A DNA stretch of 57,936 bases, from positions 1 to 57,936 of IMG/VR virus record IMGVR_UViG_3300025723_000043, one strand, 5' to 3'. The notes beneath the pieces are model-generated. The model had not been told where the DNA came from. It saw nothing but the letters and a program-made list of their open reading frames with translations, and did not search any database. The position numbers were made by a program, and so were the translations under genes. Source of the stretch: a virus (taxonomy: Duplodnaviria > Caudoviricetes). Shown piece by piece: positions 1-57,936 of this stretch; within the stretch, counting starts at the first letter, position 1, and every line of letters starts with the position of its first letter.

Positions 1-1069
1 TGCGATCAAAATAGCAATTAGGAAAGATTGTCCTTGCAGCGTTAATAGAGTCAACAATTGGCACTCTTTCCAATATTCTAGTCTTAAATCCTAAAGAACG
101 CACTATTTCTTCGATGCTCTTGCCATTTGATGCTAATGTCCTGTTTTGGGCATCGTGTGGCAACCACAATGTATCTATCATGTAGCCAAAGGTCTGCAAC
201 TTAGCCATGATCGCTGAAATTGTTTCTTGGCTTGTCTCATGGTATCTGATTAGCCTAGTCTCCATCCCAATGAACTGGACAAACCAAATGGCAGTTGCAT
301 CTGACCATCCAAGGTCAAAGACTGCATGAACTGGCTTAACAGGGTCATAGTTAACCTTGGCAATCCTGCCTTGCAACTCAGCCATTTGCAGCTCTTTGGC
401 AAAGATAGCACCATCTACAGTCTGTCTACAAACACCTTCCCAGACTGTTGCATAGGCTTCAGGATCACGAGCTTTAAGGGCATCCTTTTCTAGTCTTAAC
501 GTCTCAGGAAACCAAGGATTGTCTGACCAGTTAATCTTAACGACTTGGGCATCACTTGGGCTATGGATAATGAAACGCTGGTAAGTATTGTCTGATTCCA
601 ACTCTGGGTTAAAACTTACCCATATTTCAGACTGTTCTTTTCTAATGGTAGGAATCAATACATCCCATGACCTACCAGACACGCTTTGGCCTTCCTCAAC
701 CCAACAAATGTCTACACCCTCATAAGATTTAACATTTGCTACGTTGTTTTTTAGGCCAACAAAATTAAATTCTGAACCATTCTTACCCCTGATTGTTCTA
801 TCAGTAATTTCATAGAACTCAGTTAGTTCCATAGACGCAATCTGGTCACTCAGGAGCTTGTGTACTGAATCCTTGATCGAGGTTTGAAACTCACGAGCAC
901 AAAGAATGCGTAAAGGCTTAATAGCACCCTGAATCAACAAAGCTCTTGCAATCCCCCAAGACTTTGCACCACCTCGTCCACCCCAAAGCACTTTATACCT
1001 TGATGGCTTAAACAGGCATTCCAGCTTCTCAGGAAACTCTACCTTGTTAATGGCTTCTTGCAGATTCAA
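1..1069 (-). CDS. terL: Terminase large subunit, PBSX/XtmB type (3'-truncated by window edge)
   Basis: Not in ORF track. Manual translation from TTG at 1069 (GGAG upstream; alternative ATG at 1084): MNLQEAINKVEFPEKLECLFKPSRYKVLWGGRGGAKSWGIARALL...CAREFQTSIKDSV...CWVEEGQ; Walker A and B motifs of PBSX terminases. Confidence 0.93.
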   Translation of the reverse strand, partial: MNLQEAINKVEFPEKLECLFKPSRYKVLWGGRGGAKSWGIARALLIQGAIKPLRILCAREFQTSIKDSVHKLLSDQIASMELTEFYEITDRTIRGKNGSEFNFVGLKNNVANVKSYEGVDICWVEEGQSVSGRSWDVLIPTIRKEQSEIWVSFNPELESDNTYQRFIIHSPSDAQVVKINWSDNPWFPETLRLEKDALKARDPEAYATVWEGVCRQTVDGAIFAKELQMAELQGRIAKVNYDPVKPVHAVFDLGWSDATAIWFVQFIGMETRLIRYHETSQETISAIMAKLQTFGYMIDTLWLPHDAQNRTLASNGKSIEEIVRSLGFKTRILERVPIVDSINAARTIFPNCYFDR

Positions 1070-1152
1070 AGTTGGTGCTCCCATAAAGCAGGGTTGGACA
1101 GGACAACACTTCTATGAAACCCATCCAAGGGGCTAATCCTTTTCACCAACTT
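1069..1152 (-). ncRNA. Putative structured RNA element, copy 1 (spans terS stop and terL RBS)
   Basis: 9-bp closing stem AAGTTGGTG/CACCAACTT; hairpin AAGG-ATTAGCC-CCTT; AGTGTTG/CAACCCT stem; aligns with 10740-10824 with compensatory changes. Confidence 0.65.
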
Positions 1153-1552
1153 CGTTAGGCTTGACAAATGTCACCTGAATGCTTGGAATTAGTGGAGTTC
1201 CACCTTCACCAGTCAACTCAACCTTGCTATTGTCTCTGTACTTCTTGGGAAACCTTGCTGCCATGCTTCTAGACCAAATACTTGCATTTAACTTAGCAGC
1301 ATCTTTATGCTCAACCATGTACAACTGGCCTTGTTCTTCCCACCAATTCTGTTCAGCTATCTTAGCATCGTCCAAGGCATGCAGAAAGTCTGGATACTTG
1401 TCTTTCCAGTCGTAAATTACTCTTAACGAAACACCCAATTTGTAACTAATTTGTTCTATACTTTTGCCCAATGCGCCCAATTCCCTGACCTGATCGCAAT
1501 ATGCAGGGTCATAAAGAGTTGGTCTACCAAAGGGCTTTAAAGTATCAGACAT
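1133..1552 (-). CDS. terS: Terminase small subunit
   Basis: GRPTLYDP..C N-terminus, HTH, W...YPDF..A motif, C-terminal VELTGEGG; directly upstream of terL. Confidence 0.85.
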   Translation of the reverse strand: MSDTLKPFGRPTLYDPAYCDQVRELGALGKSIEQISYKLGVSLRVIYDWKDKYPDFLHALDDAKIAEQNWWEEQGQLYMVEHKDAAKLNASIWSRSMAARFPKKYRDNSKVELTGEGGTPLIPSIQVTFVKPNEVGEKD

Positions 1553-1725
1553 TATTGTTGTGCAGGTTGTTCAGCAGGTTGCTCTACTGGTTGTGCAGGT
1601 TTTGGTGCTTGGTCTTGAGCTTGGGCAATCATTTTGTTAAGCAGTTCAGTCATGTCTCTGATCTTGTGCTCTAAAGACTGGATGACCAAGTTAAGTTCTT
1701 GAGTTGAGTGTGTGAAGTTAAACAT
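1552..1725 (-). CDS. Hypothetical protein (57 aa, coiled coil plus Pro/Gln tail)
   Basis: Manual ORF MFNFTHSTQELNLVIQSLEHK...QPAQQ; fits tightly between its neighbours. Confidence 0.6.
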   Translation of the reverse strand: MFNFTHSTQELNLVIQSLEHKIRDMTELLNKMIAQAQDQAPKPAQPVEQPAEQPAQQ

Positions 1726-1881
1726 TTACTTTCCTTTTTTCATTGGTTTAGATTTCTTTCCAGCTTCACGCTTTTCTGAATACGCAATCGCCACAGCTTG
1801 CTTTACAGGCTTACCTGCTGCAACTTCTGTTTTGATGTTTTTTTTAAATGCTTCTGGTTTAGTTGATTTGATAAGTGGCAT
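1726..1881 (-). CDS. Small basic phage protein (KQAVAIAY motif, 51 aa)
   Basis: Manual ORF MPLIKSTKPEAFKKNIKTEVAAGKPVKQAVAIAYSEKREA; common small phage protein near packaging genes. Confidence 0.7.
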   Translation of the reverse strand: MPLIKSTKPEAFKKNIKTEVAAGKPVKQAVAIAYSEKREAGKKSKPMKKGK

Positions 1882-1883
1882 GA

Positions 1884-2156
1884 TTAACAGTTCCAGTTCT
1901 TTAGTGATGCTTTAGCCCTTTCTGCAGGGCCTTTAGCGTTTTTGACAACCCCTTCCATCCGAGCACAGAAACTCGCCTTCCTACCTTCATCCTTCTTTGT
2001 CTTTGGGTTAGGAGCTGGTGCTTTTAAATGGCTACCATTCTTTGCATTGTATTCAGCACGACCCTTTGCAGTCATACCAGCACCCTTTTCTGTAGGGTTA
2101 TAGGTCTTGCCTTTGCCAGTAGTCTTGTGTTCAATGGGTTTGTCGTGCTTTTTCAT
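1884..2156 (-). CDS. DUF6321-like basic protein
   Basis: GAGMTAKGRAEYN...LKAP...RKASFCARM...SLKNWNC; homologous to the C-terminus of 36891-37412. Confidence 0.7.
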   Translation of the reverse strand: MKKHDKPIEHKTTGKGKTYNPTEKGAGMTAKGRAEYNAKNGSHLKAPAPNPKTKKDEGRKASFCARMEGVVKNAKGPAERAKASLKNWNC

Positions 2157-2431
2157 TCGATTTCCTCTACAAAACAAACATCTTTCCAGCTCATTACCAA
2201 TAATCTTTGGTCATTGTCCTTGAATTCTTGGTATTTCAGGTATTCGTCTTTGTAATCCTTGGCTAATGTACCAAAGTAAACCTTGTCACCAATGTTAAGG
2301 CCTTCTTCTGCTGCCTCATCACCTACTGCGACAATAAATCCACAAGTGTCTGCTTCTGCACTTTGAATGTATAACGTGCTCTGAAATCTTGATTCAGGCC
2401 TGACAAATATCTTGTCTCTTAATGGTTTCAT
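2153..2431 (-). CDS. groES: Co-chaperonin GroES-like protein
   Basis: MKPLRDKIFVRP...GFIVAVGD...LNIGDKVYFG...LLVMSWKDV matches the Cpn10 pattern. Confidence 0.75.
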   Translation of the reverse strand: MKPLRDKIFVRPESRFQSTLYIQSAEADTCGFIVAVGDEAAEEGLNIGDKVYFGTLAKDYKDEYLKYQEFKDNDQRLLVMSWKDVCFVEEIE

Positions 2432-2673
2432 TTCTTGGGCCTCCCTCTACGTTTTGGAGGGTCTTCAAGAACTGGTAATTCTAAGAGCTGCCTTTCCATG
2501 TGCGAAAAAACACCTGACTCACCAGAATCAGGTAAAGGCTTGGCAACTGCTTTCTGTGCAAATTCTCCACAGACCTCATTTTCATGTCTCATTTGGTAAA
2601 CAGGATACCTCCTGCAAACTCCCAAATCTTTGCCATGAAAATGCTTGCATGACTTACAATCATTTCCAGCCAT
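2428..2673 (-). CDS. Hypothetical Cys-rich protein with C-terminal AT-hook-like KRRGRPKK
   Basis: CKSCKHF...CRRYP...CGEF; ATGA coupling to the next gene. Confidence 0.7.
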   Translation of the reverse strand: MAGNDCKSCKHFHGKDLGVCRRYPVYQMRHENEVCGEFAQKAVAKPLPDSGESGVFSHMERQLLELPVLEDPPKRRGRPKK

Positions 2674-2700
2674 TAAAGTACCCTCTTACTTTCTTGGTTA

Positions 2701-2737
2701 GAAGCCCATCTAGGTATGCTCACTTAGATGGGTTTCG
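2701..2737 (-). terminator. Long intergenic hairpin (terminator or processing site)
   Basis: GAAGCCCATCTAGGT-ATGCTC-ACTTAGATGGGTTTC just after the stop of the upstream gene; U-tract weak. Confidence 0.5.
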
Positions 2738-2739
2738 CT

Positions 2740-3078
2740 TTACATACCATCTTGGTCGTGGTCGTAACGCTTGTGCTCGTAAACAACGTGCTCTCTTGAG
2801 CCTGTGTTCATTTCACCCAAACGTCCATCGTGATGGCCCATGTGACCAGCGTCACGCTCGCCAATACCATCAGCCTTACCCATGCCAACACCACCCATGA
2901 TGGGTCTTTTTCTTTCACCAGATGTGTCTGAAGACAAAGCACCCTTTGGCACTCTCTCACCAGTCATACCTGTTTTAAACACTTCTTTGTCTTCCATAGG
3001 AACGCTTACCTTCTTCATGCCTGTGCGATCAGAAGATGTAACTCCCTTTGGCTCTTTCTCCATTTTTGGATAACCCAT
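2740..3078 (-). CDS. Hypothetical hydrophilic protein
   Basis: ATG at 3078 with AAAGGA RBS; internal repeat PKG..SSD.[TS]G. Confidence 0.65.
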   Translation of the reverse strand: MGYPKMEKEPKGVTSSDRTGMKKVSVPMEDKEVFKTGMTGERVPKGALSSDTSGERKRPIMGGVGMGKADGIGERDAGHMGHHDGRLGEMNTGSREHVVYEHKRYDHDQDGM

Positions 3079-3162
3079 GATAAATCCTTTGTTTCTTTGC
3101 AAAAAACACTACTTTTTGTAGCCATTCCACTATATCACAATTTAGATTTGTCAACTACTTTT

Positions 3163-3486
3163 TTAAGCAGCCCTCATCACATACTGAGGCTTACCAGCTC
3201 TACCATCCCTTTTTTCGTCAGTTGTATAGATTAACTTCTTGCGTTTTAAGGCAGCATAACGAGCTGTAACTGACCCATAAGGCAGGTTATGGAGTTGGGC
3301 AAGCACTTGGTCTGATATACACCCCTCAGGATGGCTTCTAATGACCTCATAAACGATTCTTTCAAGGGTTTGGGTATCTACCTTCTCTGCTGCCTCTTTG
3401 GACGTTTCTGGGGCTTCTTTTCTCACCAAAAACTTAGGCAAAGTGCCAAAACTAGGTAAGTTCATCATGTTAAATAAATCGCTCAT
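3163..3486 (-). CDS. Winged-helix DNA-binding protein (putative)
   Basis: PETSKEAAE...SVTARYAALKRKKLI...RDGRAGKPQYV pattern of small phage wHTH proteins. Confidence 0.6.
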   Translation of the reverse strand: MSDLFNMMNLPSFGTLPKFLVRKEAPETSKEAAEKVDTQTLERIVYEVIRSHPEGCISDQVLAQLHNLPYGSVTARYAALKRKKLIYTTDEKRDGRAGKPQYVMRAA

Positions 3487-3713: not shown

Positions 3714-4140
3714 TGTTTTTCTCCTTTAGTTTAGTTTCTGCCATTCGATACAAATCAAGCCAGCTTTTTCCAGTCATCGTTGTAAAACGTCCAAAAAGCT
3801 CAAAGACTTCAGCATCTGTCAGAACCACCCATATGCGTTGTGGTGTGGTGTAAAGTGGAATAATAGGTTCATCGCCTTTTTCTTTAATTTTTTTAGCAAG
3901 ATTTTCATCTTTAGTAATTAAATATTTATTTTCTGTCATCCATGCAACAGGCTCATCCTTCGTTTCTAGTTGTTCTTTATAAGTAGATTTAGATGCCATG
4001 CTTTGCGCATCAATAGCAAGACGTAGTGCAGTAATGGCTTTGTCGTAACGATTACATTGCGCTTCATCTTTCAATGGCAAATAAGGTATAAAACCTTCCA
4101 ACGCATCAAGCGCCAGTTTCAATGTTTCATCTTTAGTCAT
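3703..4140 (-). CDS. Hypothetical protein, WVGLT cassette family (homolog of 56775-57185)
   Basis: Start at MTKDETLK (4140), supported by the homologous copy; N-terminal ~65 aa near-identical to 56775-57185. Confidence 0.75.
   Translation of the reverse strand: MTKDETLKLALDALEGFIPYLPLKDEAQCNRYDKAITALRLAIDAQSMASKSTYKEQLETKDEPVAWMTENKYLITKDENLAKKIKEKGDEPIIPLYTTPQRIWVVLTDAEVFELFGRFTTMTGKSWLDLYRMAETKLKEKNNAT
3947..4140. repeat. Dispersed direct repeat of 56992-57185
   Basis: 194 nt, about 6 mismatches by manual alignment. Confidence 0.95.
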
Positions 4141-4141
4141 G

Positions 4142-4489
4142 TCAACCCCCTGGCATATTAGGCATGCAGTCAATAGGATGTCTTGGCATTGAGTCAAGAT
4201 TCGTGGAACCGTCGTACTGAGTCACCCATATACAGCGCTGGTTTGTCCATATGTAAGTTGCATTGCACTCAGGCGCCCCGTATCCCCCATCGAAAGACCA
4301 GCCGTCCATCAGTGGCTTGGCTTCTTCAATCGACATCAGCTTGCCTTGGTGCTCTTGCTGAACCTTGTGGTCTTCCTCTTCTCCATATCCACCCCAACCG
4401 TACTCACCAAAAACAATTCCCTCTACGACTTCACCATCCTCTAAGAAGTCCATCAGTTCCTTGTATGCGTTTAAAGGTTCATTATTCAT
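4142..4489 (-). CDS. Hypothetical protein (FDGGYG...Y.WT...V.QYDG family)
   Basis: ORF track; absent at the equivalent junction in phage B. Confidence 0.75.
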   Translation of the reverse strand: MNNEPLNAYKELMDFLEDGEVVEGIVFGEYGWGGYGEEEDHKVQQEHQGKLMSIEEAKPLMDGWSFDGGYGAPECNATYIWTNQRCIWVTQYDGSTNLDSMPRHPIDCMPNMPGG

Positions 4490-4652
4490 CTTTATCACCT
4501 TCTTTCATTGCTCCAAACATATGGTTTAAAGCGTAAATTTTTTTTATGTTTTCTACTTGTTGTTGATGTAAAAAAGTTGATGCTTCTCCTAACGCTTTGT
4601 TTGCACCATATAACTCAATAAGTTCATCTTGAATTTCTTCTTTGGTTTTCAT
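4482..4652 (-). CDS. Hypothetical coiled-coil protein (homolog of 57178-57348)
   Basis: MKTKEEIQDELIELYGANKALGEAST; same length as the second copy. Confidence 0.7.
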   Translation of the reverse strand: MKTKEEIQDELIELYGANKALGEASTFLHQQQVENIKKIYALNHMFGAMKEGDKDE

Positions 4653-4771
4653 TGTTGCACCCATTCTTCTTTGTCAATCCATGCATCTAACATAGCATGG
4701 AGATTAGCTCTGTTTCGTTCACCAACTGTTTGACCATTGCCTGTTTTTACTTTATCTGTAAACAATGATCC
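4649..4771. repeat. Direct repeat of window end 57814-57936
   Basis: 123 nt with one mismatch (4694 a / 57859 g); 4695-4771 identical to the final 77 nt. Confidence 0.97.
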
Positions 4772-10417: not shown

Positions 10418-10458
10418 ATGAACCTACTTTCATGGGTCGCTTTCACTTGATGAAACAG

Positions 10459-10504
10459 TGGCAGGACGGTGAAAGAGTCGTCTTTTCGGGAGCTACCCTA
10501 GCCA
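10459..10504 (-). promoter_or_regulatory. Structured leader upstream of the replication initiator
   Basis: TGGC-TA-GGG-TAGCT-CCC-GAAAA-GACG-N10-CGTC-CT-GCCA three-way junction. Confidence 0.45.
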
Positions 10505-10519
10505 TGTTCAAAAAAAATT

Positions 10520-10723
10520 TTACTCCAAAAAAAGATCTGGACGCAAGACTTTTCTACTGACTAACCCTGATGTGGCTCGTTCAATTTTCACAGATAGTTT
10601 TGCTGATGGCTTTCTATGACCATGAATGAGCAAGGATAACCATGTCGAGCTGATACCCAAGTATCCAGCCATCTCAACAATTGCACCCTTAGGTTCTTCT
10701 TTGAAATATTCGTCTAACGTCAT
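10520..10723 (-). CDS. Cro/YdaS-like HTH regulator
   Basis: MTLDEYF...MAGYLGISSTWLS..IHGHRKPS..L...IERATSGLVSR..LRPDLF. Confidence 0.85.
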   Translation of the reverse strand: MTLDEYFKEEPKGAIVEMAGYLGISSTWLSLLIHGHRKPSAKLSVKIERATSGLVSRKVLRPDLFLE

Positions 10724-10739: not shown

Positions 10740-10824
10740 TTGTTGGCGTTCACATAAAGCAGTGTCGAGGTTGCACAACACTTCTAAGAATTGCCCTCAC
10801 GGAGCTAAACCGTTTCGCCAACAA
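10740..10824 (-). ncRNA. Putative structured RNA element, copy 2 (at the predicted leftward TSS)
   Basis: TTGTTGGCG/CGCCAACAA closing stem; ACGG-TTTAGCT-CCGT hairpin; AGTGTTG/CGACACT stem; homologous to 1069-1152. Confidence 0.7.
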
Positions 10825-10828
10825 ATGC

Positions 10829-10858
10829 ATCTTACCATAACTTGTTGTTAACGTGCAA
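10829..10858 (-). promoter_or_regulatory. Leftward promoter (cro/replication operon)
   Basis: TTGCAC-18 nt-TAAGAT with extended TG; near-match operator ATAACT-TGT-TGTTAA in the spacer. Confidence 0.6.
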
Positions 10859-39757: not shown

Positions 39758-40999
39758 TTAGGCTTGTGTAACACCTAATGCACCTGTACGGGTAGCATTG
39801 GGACCAACAGCGATGCCGGGCAGGGCAATAGTCATCACTAAACGCTTTACGCCATCTGATGATGATGTAGGTACGAATGTTCCACGAACATCCCCTGTTG
39901 TTGAGGTTGCAGGATTTGTCATATCTGCTGGAACAAATGTACCTGCGTTTTGCAACAGTGTATTGTTCCAACCAACCTTGACAATATACCCAGCATCAAA
40001 ACAACGTACTGGCAAACCCAATATATCTGTTGTACCTATGGTGATTGTTGTGCCTGTAGCACCTGCGATTGTTGCTGAAGTGATTTGATAAAAGGCTTTT
40101 TTACCATTTACAGCAGTGCTGACAGAAGAGCTACTTGTAATAGACTCTGACATGGCTTGACCATAGTAGTCAAAACCACTGATAAGCACAGCACGAGGGG
40201 CGGCGCCCAGCGTGTATGTCAAACCAGTTGGCGTACCTGCTGTAGTCACCACTGCACCACCTGCAGTCGTAGTCAACGTAGCAGTTGTCGTAGTTACAGC
40301 AGACAAAATGTAAGTTGTAGGATTGGTATAACCAGTGATTGATCCAGTACCACCCAAAGCACCACTAATAGTCAAATATTGACCTGTGTATACGTTTGCA
40401 TTAGAGGTAAAAGATATTTGTCCACCAGTACCAGTGATTGCAACTCCAGCCAAAGTTGTACTAGTTGCAGTACCAGTCACAACTTGCAAAGCACGAGGTG
40501 TGTTCAACTGAATTACTGATGTACCATCTGGACGAACAATTGACTTGGCTGAAGTGCCAGCAGTCAATGTTAAAGCACCAGATGCTGTTGGCGTTTGGGA
40601 TGTGGCAATGTTGGCGGCCTGCAACGTCTGGGGCACGCAATCCCAAATATATACACGACCAAGAGGACCAACACCCAAATCCATGGGAGAAGGGTCACCC
40701 AAATATGCATCACCTGAAGAGGTAATTGTGATTGAACCAGTTGCACTTGAGGATGCACTGAGCGTGTAAGTACCAGCACCACCAGAACCTGACACAAAAG
40801 CAGTAATGTAAGAACCAGTAGTGATACCTGTTCCACTTACATATTGTCCCAAAGTCAATGGCTCACCACTCTGAAGAGCAGTAATGGTCATTGTTGTGCC
40901 AGTAACAGAACCAGTATAAATACCTTCTGTCTGGCTGAGATCCAGACCCATGTACGTCTGGGCTGGGCCTAAAAATAAATCGTCTGAAAATTGAGGCAT
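39758..40999 (-). CDS. Capsid-associated structural protein with inserted beta domains
   Basis: Follows the MCP; G.DYYGQ.M.E, GKKAF, GTTD.LGLP, AT.TTGDVRGT motifs. Confidence 0.65.
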   Translation of the reverse strand: MPQFSDDLFLGPAQTYMGLDLSQTEGIYTGSVTGTTMTITALQSGEPLTLGQYVSGTGITTGSYITAFVSGSGGAGTYTLSASSSATGSITITSSGDAYLGDPSPMDLGVGPLGRVYIWDCVPQTLQAANIATSQTPTASGALTLTAGTSAKSIVRPDGTSVIQLNTPRALQVVTGTATSTTLAGVAITGTGGQISFTSNANVYTGQYLTISGALGGTGSITGYTNPTTYILSAVTTTTATLTTTAGGAVVTTAGTPTGLTYTLGAAPRAVLISGFDYYGQAMSESITSSSSVSTAVNGKKAFYQITSATIAGATGTTITIGTTDILGLPVRCFDAGYIVKVGWNNTLLQNAGTFVPADMTNPATSTTGDVRGTFVPTSSSDGVKRLVMTIALPGIAVGPNATRTGALGVTQA

Positions 41000-52604: not shown

Positions 52605-54026
52605 CTACTGAGCATAAGGGTTGCCTTTGTTTCTTGGCATACCTGAGTCCACATAGTCATCCATGTCCCATGCCTCTGGAGCTGGTCCATCAATGTCTAA
52701 CCAGCCTGAATCCCTCAGATATCTCAGAGCTTGAGTCATGGCATCCACAAAGTCATCATGAGCTGACTCAGGAAAGCTACAGACTTGGCTGACCATGCCC
52801 TCTGCCCAGTCTTTGACGAAGCCCTTGGTCTTACTGCTCTCAGGTATCCAGACTCTGCCCATGGCGATGATGTTGGAGACGATGTTGAGCCTTTGGGTCT
52901 TGTCTGCACGCCCCGGGTTGTACGCCCGTACAGGCAAATGTGCTCGTTGAAGGTCTTGTATCAGGGAAATCCCTGCTGACTTGTCCTCAATCAGAATCAA
53001 GTCCACCCTCTTCTTCTCCCTGCCATCCCCAAACACAACCTCAAACTCCTCTTTAACTTTGGGACGCAAGTCAGGATACTGTAAGCGATCTTGCCAGCAG
53101 TCGATCACCATCACGCTCATTGGACCATCTGTAGGGCGAAAGCAACCAAAGGTTATCGAGGCTGTTGGATCGTTTATCGTCTTATCTGTATAGGCACAGT
53201 CATAAGACTGGACAATGAACTCGAACTTAGGGAACTCCTTGCTGTTAGGCCATAGCCTGAACATAGAACGCTTGATGATGCCAGTGTCCTCGGGGTCCAG
53301 AATCTCAGCGTAGATTTCCTGTTTCCCAAGCTTTGTCCCCTCGTACTGCAGAATCTGCTTTTGGAACGATGGGCTCAAGTTTTTGATGTTGTCGTAGGTA
53401 GAGGCTGTGGTGACCTTCACATCGTCACCATCCCTGCCTACAAGCTCCACGATGAGGTCTTTGGGCCTTGGGGTAGTGGTAGCTATGATCCTAGTGCGTT
53501 CACCTAAACGGACTGAGAACATGACTTGGTCGTAGGCTTCTTGGAGGTAGTCCCATGCGGCCAACTCATCCAACCACGCCCCATGATACTGCCCTCCACG
53601 AAAACGCTCAGGCTCTGACGCTGGCACTCCCTTGATCAGCGATCCATTGATCAGCTTGATCTCGCTGTACGCCCTGTTGTAGTCAGAAATGATTTGCTCA
53701 GGAATGCAGGCAATGAGTCCGCTCTCGCCTTCAAACATAGTTCCCCGAACGTCCGCAGAAGTTGGTCCAGCACACAGCCAGCGTGAGTTCGGTTCTTGCC
53801 ATGCCCACCACCAGATCTGCTCTGCCGCAGTCCTCGTCTTCCCGGCACCTCTACCTGCCAAAAGGAGCCAAAAGTTCCACCAATCCCCTTGTGGCAACTT
53901 CTGATGCCTGTGCTGTTTCTGTATCCACTGGAGCCTTCTCGCATAAGCTATCTGGTCAGTTGGATCTAAGACATCAAAGGCTTCCTTCACCTTTGGGTCC
54001 TTCAGCAATGCGAACGCATCACTCAT
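52605..54026 (-). CDS. terL: Terminase large subunit
   Basis: AGRGAGKT Walker A, WLDE Walker B, TTTP, QSYD.A...D, IEDK..G, HDD.VDA.TQ nuclease motifs. Confidence 0.95.
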   Translation of the reverse strand: MSDAFALLKDPKVKEAFDVLDPTDQIAYARRLQWIQKQHRHQKLPQGDWWNFWLLLAGRGAGKTRTAAEQIWWWAWQEPNSRWLCAGPTSADVRGTMFEGESGLIACIPEQIISDYNRAYSEIKLINGSLIKGVPASEPERFRGGQYHGAWLDELAAWDYLQEAYDQVMFSVRLGERTRIIATTTPRPKDLIVELVGRDGDDVKVTTASTYDNIKNLSPSFQKQILQYEGTKLGKQEIYAEILDPEDTGIIKRSMFRLWPNSKEFPKFEFIVQSYDCAYTDKTINDPTASITFGCFRPTDGPMSVMVIDCWQDRLQYPDLRPKVKEEFEVVFGDGREKKRVDLILIEDKSAGISLIQDLQRAHLPVRAYNPGRADKTQRLNIVSNIIAMGRVWIPESSKTKGFVKDWAEGMVSQVCSFPESAHDDFVDAMTQALRYLRDSGWLDIDGPAPEAWDMDDYVDSGMPRNKGNPYAQ

Positions 54027-55441: not shown

Positions 55442-55571
55442 CTTTCTCTCCCATAACCCTTAATCCCAAAAATAAAAAAAATGCAAACCAGTAGTGATCA
55501 TTCATAATCAAATAAATGATGGCAGCAATCAACACTAGATTTGTAATCAGTTGAAACCAATATTCGTTCAT
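55428..55571 (-). CDS. Small two-TM protein (47 aa)
   Basis: Manual ORF MNEYWFQLITNLVLIAAIIYLIM...; ATGA coupling. Confidence 0.5.
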   Translation of the reverse strand: MNEYWFQLITNLVLIAAIIYLIMNDHYWFAFFLFLGLRVMGEKDENT

Positions 55572-55951
55572 GTATTGCGCTCCTTCAGCTTGTCTTCCAA
55601 AGCCCTTCCCATTTTTTGAAAATTCATAGTATCCATGTAAATTTTTTCTATTTCTTCATCAGTCAACCCAACCCATTTTTTCGTTTCTAACTCCTCAACG
55701 CGTTTTGCCAACCTTTGAATTTCCTCAACCATATCTTTAAATCCATCCCAGTCTGGATTGAATTCGTTTGGTGATTTGTATTGACATCCTTTTTTCTTGG
55801 TGTGTCCGCAGTCACCTCCACAACTAGGACATGGCCTCATGGTTTCTTCTCCTTTTGGTATGTAATGTGGATATGGTTTATTGACCAACTCCACGCCTTG
55901 GCCAGTCTCATAGGCTTTGACAGACTTACTGTCCCACATCGGTTGTTTCAT
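55568..55951 (-). CDS. Hypothetical protein, WVGLT cassette family with Cys module
   Basis: CPSCGGDC...C; EFNPDWD; KWVGLTDEEI...LEDKLKERNT. Confidence 0.7.
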   Translation of the reverse strand: MKQPMWDSKSVKAYETGQGVELVNKPYPHYIPKGEETMRPCPSCGGDCGHTKKKGCQYKSPNEFNPDWDGFKDMVEEIQRLAKRVEELETKKWVGLTDEEIEKIYMDTMNFQKMGRALEDKLKERNT

Positions 55952-56782: not shown

Positions 56783-57185
56783 GATTTTTCTCCTTGAGAT
56801 ATTTTTCGTAGTCGTTCATTAAAGATACTGCCGTTTTTCTATCCCAGTTTGATGGGTAATACGCAACAACAAATTGCGCCTTTTCCTCATCCGTAAGTCC
56901 TACCCATGTGCGTTGTGGTGTGGTGTAAAGAGGTCTGCAAGATTCATCTGTCTTTACACAAATCATGTAGCCTTTACTATCTATCCATCCCACAGGCTCA
57001 TCTTTTGTTTCTAGTTGTTCTTTATAAGTAGATTTAGATGCCATGTTTTGCACATCAATAACAAGACGTAGTGCAGTAATGGCTTTGTCGTAACGATTAC
57101 ATTGCGCTTCATCTTTCAATGGCAAATAAGGTATAAAACCCTCCAACGCATCAAGCGCCAGTTTCAATGTTTCATCTTTAGTCAT
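56775..57185 (-). CDS. Hypothetical protein, WVGLT cassette family (homolog of 3703-4140)
   Basis: MTKDETLKLALDALE...EPV.W...PLYTTPQRTWVGLTDEE...LKEKN. Confidence 0.75.
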   Translation of the reverse strand: MTKDETLKLALDALEGFIPYLPLKDEAQCNRYDKAITALRLVIDVQNMASKSTYKEQLETKDEPVGWIDSKGYMICVKTDESCRPLYTTPQRTWVGLTDEEKAQFVVAYYPSNWDRKTAVSLMNDYEKYLKEKNHV

Positions 57186-57348
57186 CTTTGTCTTCTTCTT
57201 TCATTGCTCCCAACATATGGTTTAAAGCGTATAGTCTCTTTGTGATTTCTATCTGTTGTTGATGCAAACGAGTTGATGCTTCTCCTAACGCTTTGTTTGC
57301 ACCATATAACTCAATAAGTTCATCTTGAATTTCTTCTTTGGTTTTCAT
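57178..57348 (-). CDS. Hypothetical coiled-coil protein (homolog of 4482-4652)
   Basis: Manual ORF of 56 aa, MKTKEEIQDELIELYGANKALGEASTRLHQQQ... Confidence 0.7.
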   Translation of the reverse strand: MKTKEEIQDELIELYGANKALGEASTRLHQQQIEITKRLYALNHMLGAMKEEDKDD

Positions 57349-57551
57349 TCTTGTCCCCTTGCTTTTATCATTGCGTCTGCATACTGGTAAGCCTTACCAC
57401 CCACAAACTCAAGAGTTGTTGTAAATCTGTTGTCTTCTCTACCAATAATTGCTTGCATAGCCTTTGCCGCAAAGTAATCACGCAATGTCATACCTGTACA
57501 AGTAATGTCTTTATGCGTCCAAGGAAATGCAGTTGGTAGTTCATTAATCAT
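57345..57551 (-). CDS. Conserved small phage protein (GMTLRDYFAAKAM family)
   Basis: AFP...GMTLRDYFAAKAMQ...AY..ADAM..AR. Confidence 0.8.
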   Translation of the reverse strand: MINELPTAFPWTHKDITCTGMTLRDYFAAKAMQAIIGREDNRFTTTLEFVGGKAYQYADAMIKARGQE

Positions 57552-57817
57552 TCTTTCCCCCTTCCATCAGGATGTTCATTAAATTCTGTTACGGCTTGGT
57601 GATGCAACATTGGCGCATTGCGTTTCAAATAACGCATCGCTGATCTTTTCCAATGAGCCAAATTGATGCAACTTTTAAAAATGATATGGTTTGCTTCTTC
57701 AACTTCTTTTTCTGCTACTAATTCTCCAAATGCCCACAAAGCCTCATATCCACTTTCACCATGAGCATATTGCCATCCCGCTTGTTTAGCCAACTCAATC
57801 ATTTCATCTTTAGTCAT
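57548..57817 (-). CDS. Hypothetical cassette protein
   Basis: MTKDEMIELAKQAG...F..LVAEKE; ATGA overlap with the junction gene stop. Confidence 0.7.
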   Translation of the reverse strand: MTKDEMIELAKQAGWQYAHGESGYEALWAFGELVAEKEVEEANHIIFKSCINLAHWKRSAMRYLKRNAPMLHHQAVTEFNEHPDGRGKE

Positions 57818-57936
57818 TGTTGCACCCATTCTTCTTTGTCAATCCATGCATCTAACATGGCATGGAGATTAGCTCTGTTTCGTTCACCAACTGTTTGACC
57901 ATTGCCTGTTTTTACTTTATCTGTAAACAATGATCC
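57814..57936. repeat. Window-end copy of 4649-4771
   Basis: 123 nt, one mismatch. Confidence 0.97.

Follow-up and report, generated by a model that had tools for sequence, protein, structure and literature searches.

What is the role of a short sequence that a phage record carries twice, once in front of a cro-like gene and once across the junction of two terminase genes? The question arises from IMG/VR virus record IMGVR_UViG_3300025723_000043 (Duplodnaviria; Caudoviricetes), of which we analyzed positions 1 to 57,936; this whole stretch is called the window in the following. A first-pass annotation, made from the letters of the window, had pointed out a structured RNA of about 85 nucleotides (nt) in two copies on the minus strand, copy B at 10740–10824 and copy A at 1069–1152. 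Both copies are members of a so far unnamed RNA family that is absent from Rfam 15, and the element is a folded RNA module with three strongly covarying helices (P1, P2 and P4). With a probability of roughly 0.35 we read it as a cis-acting operon-start module whose two invariant loops would dock on a conserved host machine, following the logic of the put element of phage HK022 with a different fold.

Fold and covariation of the element

Checked against the sequence, the coordinates, the strand and the letters of both copies were correct as annotated. Aligned with each other, the two copies agree at 59 of the 85 positions of copy B. The compensatory stem changes that had been described between the copies are also real: the outer stem differs as UUGUUGGCG/CGCCAACAA versus AAGUUGGUG/CACCAACUU and the first hairpin as ACGG/CCGU versus AAGG/CCUU. 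A search of the whole window with a covariance model made from relatives (model R1, filters off) scored copy A with 107 bits and copy B with 86 bits; model R2 gave 72.3 and 71.2 bits, respectively. The next-best R1 match in the window, at 40097–40176, reached 15 bits. This candidate for a third copy carries neither of the two conserved loops and was rejected. Compared with shuffled versions of themselves, both copies fold somewhat better on the minus strand (z = −2.42 and −2.31); the opposite strand gives weaker values (z = −2.16 and −0.52). For the positions of the individual helices see Table 1.

The family alignment divides the element into four helices. P1 is a variable closing stem that encloses three hairpins. 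P2 is a hairpin of 3–9 base pairs (bp) with two near-invariant G-C pairs below a loop of the type N-UUAGC-N (mostly GUUAGCG). All 56 alignment rows keep the UUAGC core unchanged, in agreement with the conserved TTAGC loop noted earlier. P3 is a variable region, usually a hairpin, whose loop sequence is specific to the subfamily: UAGAAGUGUUGU in that of the window and UGUGCAAAUAC in another. P4 has a 3-bp stem with the invariant loop UGCUUUAU at its tip; it is followed by AG or AA and then by the 3' strand of P1. Thirteen loop positions never vary among the 56 rows, and a fourteenth deviates in a single row. As a working definition of the family we used P1, P2 with the N-UUAGC-N loop and a 3-bp P4 with a UGCUU(U/C/A)AU loop, in this order; both copies of the window have all three parts.

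Covariation was assessed on an alignment of 59 covariance-model matches, which contains one false row (the window segment 40097–40176). In P1, P2 and P4 together, 96.3% of the cells are paired, compared with 64.6% in shuffles and 30–46% with the partners slid. The covariation score is 0.738 versus 0.153, and none of 500 shuffles reached the observed values. Fourteen of the 16 pairs in these helices have changed on both sides, including each of the nine pairs of P1. P4 was absent from the model with which the alignment was made; its middle pair is AU in 30 rows, CG in 15, GC in nine and UA in four, and is unpaired in none. RNAalifold, applied to a structure-blind MAFFT alignment, predicts P2 and P4 independently. 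At least seven contiguous P1 pairs are present in 52 of 67 candidates versus 9.9% of mismatched flank pairs. The support for P3 is weaker, with 78% of the cells paired and three of seven pairs changed on both sides in a 10-sequence alignment. Beyond the strands of the two copies (Table 1), P3 reads GAAUGGG/CCUGUUC in locus L021 and GAUGGG/CCUAUC in locus L010.

Some parts of the initially proposed structure did not extend to the family. Its third stem, AGTGTTG/CGACACT, shares the 5' strand with the better-supported P4, so it is not the conserved structure, and the conservation of TAGAAG (TGTTGT) is confined to one subfamily. The ATG within CTGCTTTATG is loop sequence that is kept family-wide. 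Two tertiary arrangements were considered and set aside. A kissing interaction between the P2 and P4 loops would be limited to AGC:GCU (3 bp), with a P2 of varying length, and was not counted as structure. An H-type pseudoknot combining the AGTGTTG stem with P3 was rejected on inferred geometry, as it would leave zero linker across a 7-bp helix.

Forty-seven of 570 P1 pairs are G-U pairs. Because of these pairs, the folded strand is the minus strand, on which both copies were annotated. They also bear on the question whether the element acts as RNA at all. A function at the level of DNA, for example as recombination linker, packaging site or attachment site, would suit its location at mosaic module boundaries, and the window itself is mosaic at 3.8–4.8 kb. 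Such a reading is contradicted, because the compensatory changes keep the pairing while the sequence varies and because every G-U pair would be an A-C mismatch on the other strand. The orientation of the element, moreover, is always that of the flanking genes. Among the explanations weighed here, we regard this one as the least probable.

The location of the invariant nucleotides within the fold is relevant for two further explanations. The element is compact and multi-helical with about 15 invariant unpaired nucleotides, as might be a small self-cleaving ribozyme whose role would be to split polycistronic phage transcripts at the borders between modules. Its intergenic positions within phage operons are reminiscent of hammerhead and twister ribozymes, and one element-carrying contig (L184 7633–7714, minus strand) has a sub-threshold match to hammerhead HH9 (28.4 bits vs a cut-off of 52) with the CUGAUGA...GAAAC core intact. 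The conserved nucleotides, however, are found in terminal loops and not in the junction, none of the ribozyme models of Rfam 15 matched even at E ≤ 10, no circular permutations were seen and P1 is the open helix in all members. We consider a ribozyme improbable. A riboswitch-like sensor of a small molecule, controlling the downstream genes, would likewise be in keeping with a multi-helix junction closed by P1, and in some members (loci L263 and L290, copy A) a ribosome-binding site or a terminator lies beside the 3' strand of P1. The confinement of the invariant nucleotides to terminal loops counts against this explanation, too; the junction is poorly conserved and P2 is of variable length. 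Since the downstream genes have no shared metabolic theme and no consistent expression platform was seen among the members, we give a riboswitch very little weight.

Distribution and genomic settings

We count at least 57 distinct sequences in the family, which were recovered from phage contigs of IMG/VR, from ten genome loci and from one cultured phage, Acidovorax phage ACF1. The exact pattern of copy A was found in 27 IMG/VR contigs with 11 distinct sequences, some of which have a wholly different outer stem, e.g. UGGGGGCUG/CAGUCCCCA. Two looser patterns yielded at least 117 stretches each, mostly by chance, and these were sifted by nhmmer and a stem check. A scan of 185,579 species genomes gave 58 stretches, of which roughly half were to be expected by chance (about 34 by a rough estimate). 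Ten loci among them have all three helices; matches in Legionella, Enterobacter, Bacteroidota, Firmicutes and others lack the three helices, which fits the chance estimate, and were discarded. Sifting of the patterns and of the genome scan left 56 distinct elements, to which the ACF1 member was added. The genome carriers are a Burkholderiaceae metagenome-assembled genome (MAG), Castellaniella, Curvibacter, Achromobacter dolens (with two adjacent copies), Rhodoferax, Undibacterium, three Burkholderiales or betaproteobacterial MAGs and one Beijerinckiaceae MAG, so that nine of the ten loci belong to Burkholderiales-type bacteria.

A blastn search (word size 11) with both copies against 50,697 GenBank phage records gave no match. 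When two relatives were used as queries, the sole real match among GenBank phages was ACF1, whose member of the family scores 50 bits (E = 5.6e-12); a 30-nt match in an E. coli phage fragment was put down to chance, as model R2 finds nothing there. None of 149 further Burkholderiales genomes matched, and among the 151 sampled only two known carriers were recovered (30 candidates scored per genome, strict filters). The family is rare, patchy and phage-borne, its members residing in phages or prophages of nearly exclusively Burkholderiales hosts.

The first-pass annotation had assigned the two copies to two different phages. This is partly right. The window is a single IMG/VR record, but it encodes two unrelated large terminases: a Terminase_3 gene cut by the left end (2–1084) and a second one at 52605–54026, accompanied by portal and tail genes that run down to ~14 kb. 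Its right end (56888–57936) repeats positions 3813–4771 at 85–96% identity. In addition, contigs L008 and L018 are 99% identical to positions 1–3480 and extend past the left end with sequence absent from the window. Because of the two terminases, the diverged terminal repeat and these extensions, the left 3.8 kb, which include copy A, are best interpreted as a packaging module that belongs to a second, mosaic relative; they could have been joined by assembly or reflect a tandem arrangement. The record is longer than one genome and either runs into a mosaic variant or is a chimeric or tandem assembly. Copy B is part of the early region of the complete phage.

The settings of the two copies differ as originally described (Table 1): copy B precedes the cro-like gene, and copy A spans the terS-terL junction. 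A TG-extended −10-like hexamer (TGgTAAGAT) lies 4 nt ahead of the start of copy B; this site was missed by a stricter promoter scan. The suggestion that copy B begins at a leftward transcription start is therefore plausible, its basis being a match to the promoter consensus. In copy A, the UAG within the P2 loop (1135–1133) is the stop codon of terS. A GGGAG (1082–1078), formed by the 3' strand of P4 and the adjoining linker, is located 8 nt before a UUG (1069–1067) just past P1 and can serve as a ribosome-binding site. This UUG is in frame with the AUG of the P4 loop (1084–1082). Relatives have GUG or UUG at the same position, and locus L010 has an AUG 9 nt after GGGGG. Within the first 12.5 kb of the window, the gene strand has a single convincing intrinsic terminator, at 2478–2534 (minus strand; 10 pairs, then TTTTTT). 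It is directly followed by a promoter-like site (TTCGCA-17-TAGAAT) at the boundary between early and packaging genes.

Table 1. Coordinates of the two copies, their helices and the adjacent features in the window.
Feature	Position	Strand	Details
Copy B, whole element	10740–10824	−	P1 5' strand 10824–10816, P1 3' strand 10748–10740
Copy B, P2 hairpin	10799–10813	−	ACGG 10813–10810, loop UUUAGCU 10809–10803, CCGU 10802–10799
Copy B, P3	10767–10798	−	GAGG 10798–10795, 24-nt loop with UAGAAGUGUUGU 10794–10771, CCUC 10770–10767; weaker support
Copy B, P4 mini-hairpin	10751–10764	−	CAC 10764–10762, loop UGCUUUAU 10761–10754, GUG 10753–10751
Copy A, whole element	1069–1152	−	P1 5' strand 1152–1144, P1 3' strand 1077–1069
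Copy A, P2 hairpin	1127–1141	−	AAGG, loop AUUAGCC 1137–1131, CCUU
Copy A, P3	1096–1126	−	GGAUGGG 1126–1120, loop 1119–1103, CCUGUCC 1102–1096
Copy A, P4	1080–1093	−	CCC, loop UGCUUUAU 1090–1083, GGG
Promoter-like site before copy B	10829–10858	−	TTGCAC 10858–10853, TG-extended −10 TAAGAT 10834–10829; consensus match only
cro-like gene (YdaS/Cro family)	10520–10723	−	ATG 16 nt after copy B, AGGA before ATG
Small terminase-like gene (terS)	1133–1552	−	weak Sf6_terminase match, below Pfam cut-off
Large terminase gene (terL, Terminase_3)	2–1084	−	truncated by record end

Across the family, the element is usually located at the start of a gene block, whatever gene comes next, and often a few bases from a predicted transcription start. 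A promoter-like site ends 4–10 nt before P1 in 14 of 57 elements, compared with 2.7% of 1866 control positions. In seven of 56 elements, an ATG with a preceding Shine-Dalgarno-like site lies 14–18 nt after P1. The downstream genes are mutually unrelated and encode Cro-like proteins (in the window and in locus L243), DUF927, DUF5856, large terminases and unnamed families; 16 of 56 elements have no open reading frame of at least 45 amino acids within 120 nt. Within 4 kb of the element, even the most frequent protein family is shared by no more than ten of 56 loci, and a partner protein was not found. With relatives in so many different gene contexts, the early description of a portable structured RNA is well founded.

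These positions are also compatible with a leader that acts on translation or message stability, either as a 5' clamp against decay or by governing the access of ribosomes, with copy A coupling the translation of terL to that of terS. The tight start-codon spacing and the 14 elements that begin at a predicted transcript 5' end are in line with such a function, as is the enclosure of the terS stop codon in the P2 loop and of GGGAG and the UUG/GUG start of terL in P4 and P1 of copy A. A stabilizing hairpin, however, needs no invariant loops, and the strict identity of 13 positions throughout the alignment is left unaccounted for. The members without a downstream reading frame and those inside non-coding arrays (see below) are equally difficult to reconcile with a leader, which we consider rather unlikely.

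Terminators provide a further aspect of the context. An intrinsic terminator on the same strand is found within 200 nt downstream of seven of 57 elements and upstream of ten. In ACF1 and in locus L290, such a terminator, 64 and 17 nt after the element, respectively, separates it from the following genes. The element of locus L015 is flanked by two terminators, at 23 nt on its upstream side and at 103 nt on its downstream side. A U run directly follows P1 in loci L165 and L294. The ACF1 element is located near the end of a ~700-nt non-coding stretch after terL, at whose head a promoter-like site and a tRNA-like sequence of 92 nt are found; a strong terminator ends the stretch, and the adaptor and portal genes come next. 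The 92-nt sequence is annotated as 'tRNA-Ala(cgc)' (L312 2448–2539, record positions 55511–55602); ARAGORN calls it, and it has no Rfam tRNA match at E ≤ 1.

Four loci contain non-coding arrays of four to five hairpins: L164 3940–4310 (minus strand), L027 5000–5590 (minus strand), L182 1450–1790 (plus strand) and L232 5090–5530 (plus strand). In these arrays the element occupies one of several hairpin 'slots'. The basal stems of the arrays alternate between GUGUUGG/CCAACA and UGGGG/CCCCA, with conserved junctions GCC and AC-N-A-ACACGCA. One junction type is nearly the reverse complement of the other, and some units have T-arm-like GGUUCGAAUCC motifs. The arrays gave no Rfam match and no tRNA call, and the array-type junction is absent from the window. 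In two loci, L108 (~860–1400, minus strand) and L182 (~1810–2150, plus strand), a second promoter-like site lies downstream of the element and leads into a long, conserved non-coding stretch. The two stretches share blocks such as ...CUAUCGGGUUUU... and ...GCGCAAAGAAG...; the one in L108 has no Rfam match at E ≤ 0.1.

A stable trans-acting RNA, either excised from leaders, intergenic regions or multi-hairpin arrays or made as its own small transcript, might use the invariant loops to bind and sequester or redirect a conserved host protein (e.g. of defense, RNA decay or an RNA chaperone). The terminator-flanked non-coding unit of L015 and the ACF1 unit with its promoter-like head and strong terminator fit this explanation, as do the array slots, whose conserved junctions are possible processing sites, the U runs after P1, and the combination of invariant loops with the lack of a co-traveling partner protein. 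On the other hand, both copies of the window are embedded in messenger RNA without a terminator of their own, and only the seven elements mentioned above have a terminator within 200 nt downstream. We regard a trans-acting RNA as a possible function, though on balance an unlikely one.

The first-pass annotation had also listed an antisense RNA among the possible functions. A c4- or CI-type immunity RNA would be derived from the early leader, and its variable loop would pair within the same operon to shut it off. The leader position of copy B matches that of c4 of phage P1 and CI of phage P4, which sit in the leader of an early operon. The closing stem with its hairpins, a P3 that differs between subfamilies on a constant scaffold and the fact that no recognizable repressor gene was found beside cro would also be consistent with such a role. 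No target, however, was found by any of three approaches. Duplexes of P3 with the 120 nt downstream of its own element were no better than those with the corresponding region of other loci (mean z = −0.06, p = 0.64, 52 elements). Complements of the P2 and P4 loops are not enriched within 2 kb. In the window, the complement of the P3 loop occurs at chance level (nine matches with up to two mismatches, 8.05 expected). The Rfam C4 model was unmatched as well, and we consider an antisense function very improbable.

A possible operon-start module

The loops of the element are invariant while P1, P3, the neighboring genes and the phage lineages change. There is no common protein family nearby, complements of the loops are not enriched in the vicinity, and P3 shows no preference for pairing with its own downstream sequence. 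The element is read in the sense of the genes and is frequently the first thing transcribed. For these reasons we favor a module that is positioned in cis and would be recognized by a conserved component of the host. A put-like function is favored because put is the only well-studied precedent with this logic. PMC9378689 describes put of HK022 as two sequence-sharing copies of ~70 nt per genome, one of them just downstream of an early promoter; it acts through RNA polymerase alone without a phage protein, and its two stem-loops form a V that no helix closes.

Based on these considerations we propose the following sequence of events. The module would be read on the minus strand as part of the phage messenger RNA and act in cis. 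It would fold on leaving RNA polymerase, and its two invariant loops could then engage a conserved host machine; by analogy with put of HK022, this would most likely be the transcription elongation complex. The same polymerase would subsequently continue through the pause and stop signals of the long operon. The same-strand terminators between the element and the following genes in ACF1 and L290 are in favor of this proposal. Copy A may have an additional, local effect of secondary importance. Its fold holds the stop codon of terS in the P2 loop, while P4 and the 3' strand of P1 contain the start of terL together with its putative ribosome-binding site, so that ribosomes finishing terS would open the fold and thereby allow the translation of terL (translational coupling).

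Several observations weigh against an operon-start module of this type. The fold differs from the V-shaped, unclosed stem-loops of put. Terminators are not enriched downstream of the element (7/57 within 200 nt vs 10/57 upstream). Copy A is located between packaging genes, ~1.4 kb after the only convincing late promoter/terminator pair (2478–2534), which is an odd place to load an antiterminator. The covariance-model search found no copy in the divergent early operon on the plus strand of the window. Finally, the members in non-coding hairpin arrays or short terminated units (L015, L164, L182, ACF1) are explained no less well by a processed trans-acting RNA.

More tentatively still, the family might represent a new class of RNA-only modifiers of transcription elongation in phages of Betaproteobacteria. 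It would be an analogue of put with an unrelated four-helix fold and a plug-in unit, used alone in leaders or within arrays. To our knowledge, no more than a handful of RNAs act on the transcription machinery of the host without the help of a protein, and until now put has been a curiosity of HK022-like coliphages. If the put-like reading is true, RNA-only action could be tested in a second, independent system from a different bacterial class; if the use in both arrays and leaders is true, it would amount to a modular phage RNA toolkit that is not yet described. Whatever the mechanism, the family is a clean experimental target with 57 sequences, a clear fold, a cultured carrier (ACF1) and obvious mutants. 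It also provides an annotation marker for early operon starts and for the terS-terL junction in phages of freshwater Burkholderiales.

Comparison with known RNA systems

To relate the element to catalogued RNAs, we searched Rfam 15. At gathering scores, the only match in the whole window is int-alpA at 10440–10508, which is not the element. At E ≤ 10, copy B has no match and copy A has three irrelevant ones at 11–13 bits. Among 12 related loci, the only match at gathering score is Betaproteobacteria-1, away from the element in locus L229. The initial statement that the element could not be assigned to a described family thus stands. A full-text literature search with the motif strings returned unrelated primers only. 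The topology alone is cloverleaf-like; a tRNA-like nature was rejected on the result of ARAGORN, which reports no transfer RNA or transfer-messenger RNA gene in the window or in the 12 related loci.

The Betaproteobacteria-1 RNA (RF02932, 101 bits) is located at L229 1481–1598 on the minus strand, ~600 nt downstream of the L229 element in the same non-coding stretch. The int-alpA RNA of the window (RF02996; minus strand, 39.9 bits vs a cut-off of 35.8) lies between the cro-like gene and a DUF1376 replication-type gene, on what would be the same early transcript as copy B. Like our element, int-alpA is a phage-associated junction RNA with a closing stem and internal hairpins. In contrast to it, neither copy is matched by the int-alpA model at E ≤ 10, and the conserved nucleotides are different.

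Unnamed RNA motifs of phages are being catalogued by the thousand. PMC10690425 (2023) reports 8495 unnamed candidate structured RNAs termed 'DNAVirus_N' from IMG/VR intergenic regions, with a mean length of 67 nt. They come from the same source collection and are the same kind of object as our motif. The passages of the main text of that paper name no such motif; the motif may already be among the candidates, the comparison being one with the main text.

The c4 RNAs of phages P1 and P7 and the CI RNA of phage P4 (Rfam C4, RF01695) resemble the motif as small early-leader RNAs with a closing stem and a constant scaffold that carries a variable part. RNase P processes c4 and CI out of the leader, which yields a stable RNA of ~70 nt. 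The loops of c4 set immunity specificity, whereas those of the motif are invariant between phages, and complementary targets were not found here. Lambda-type nut sites (boxA and boxB) are similar in being RNA signals near the start of an early operon, and nut acts via host factors. The P4 loop UGCUUUAU is, however, not a boxA, and the order of the parts and the loop size differ. The boxA-like ...GCTCTTTAACAA sites of three host genomes, identified by sequence, also differ from the P4 loop. BoxB is a GNRA-like pentaloop, unlike the 7-nt loop of P2, and the divergent operon of the window has no copy.

The closest precedent remains put (putL and putR) of HK022, within what PMC9378689 describes of it. 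Its activity is RNA-only processive antitermination: bound to the zinc-binding domain of the beta' subunit, put makes RNA polymerase read through terminators. Like put, the motif is ~70–85 nt long, occurs as two related copies in one genome, one of them after an early promoter, has no dedicated phage protein and is cis-acting by its position; the second copy of the window, however, lies between terS and terL. Unlike put, which has no helix joining its 5' and 3' ends, the motif is closed by P1 and has four helices, unrelated conserved loops and hosts among the Betaproteobacteria, and an action of the motif on polymerase is so far a prediction.

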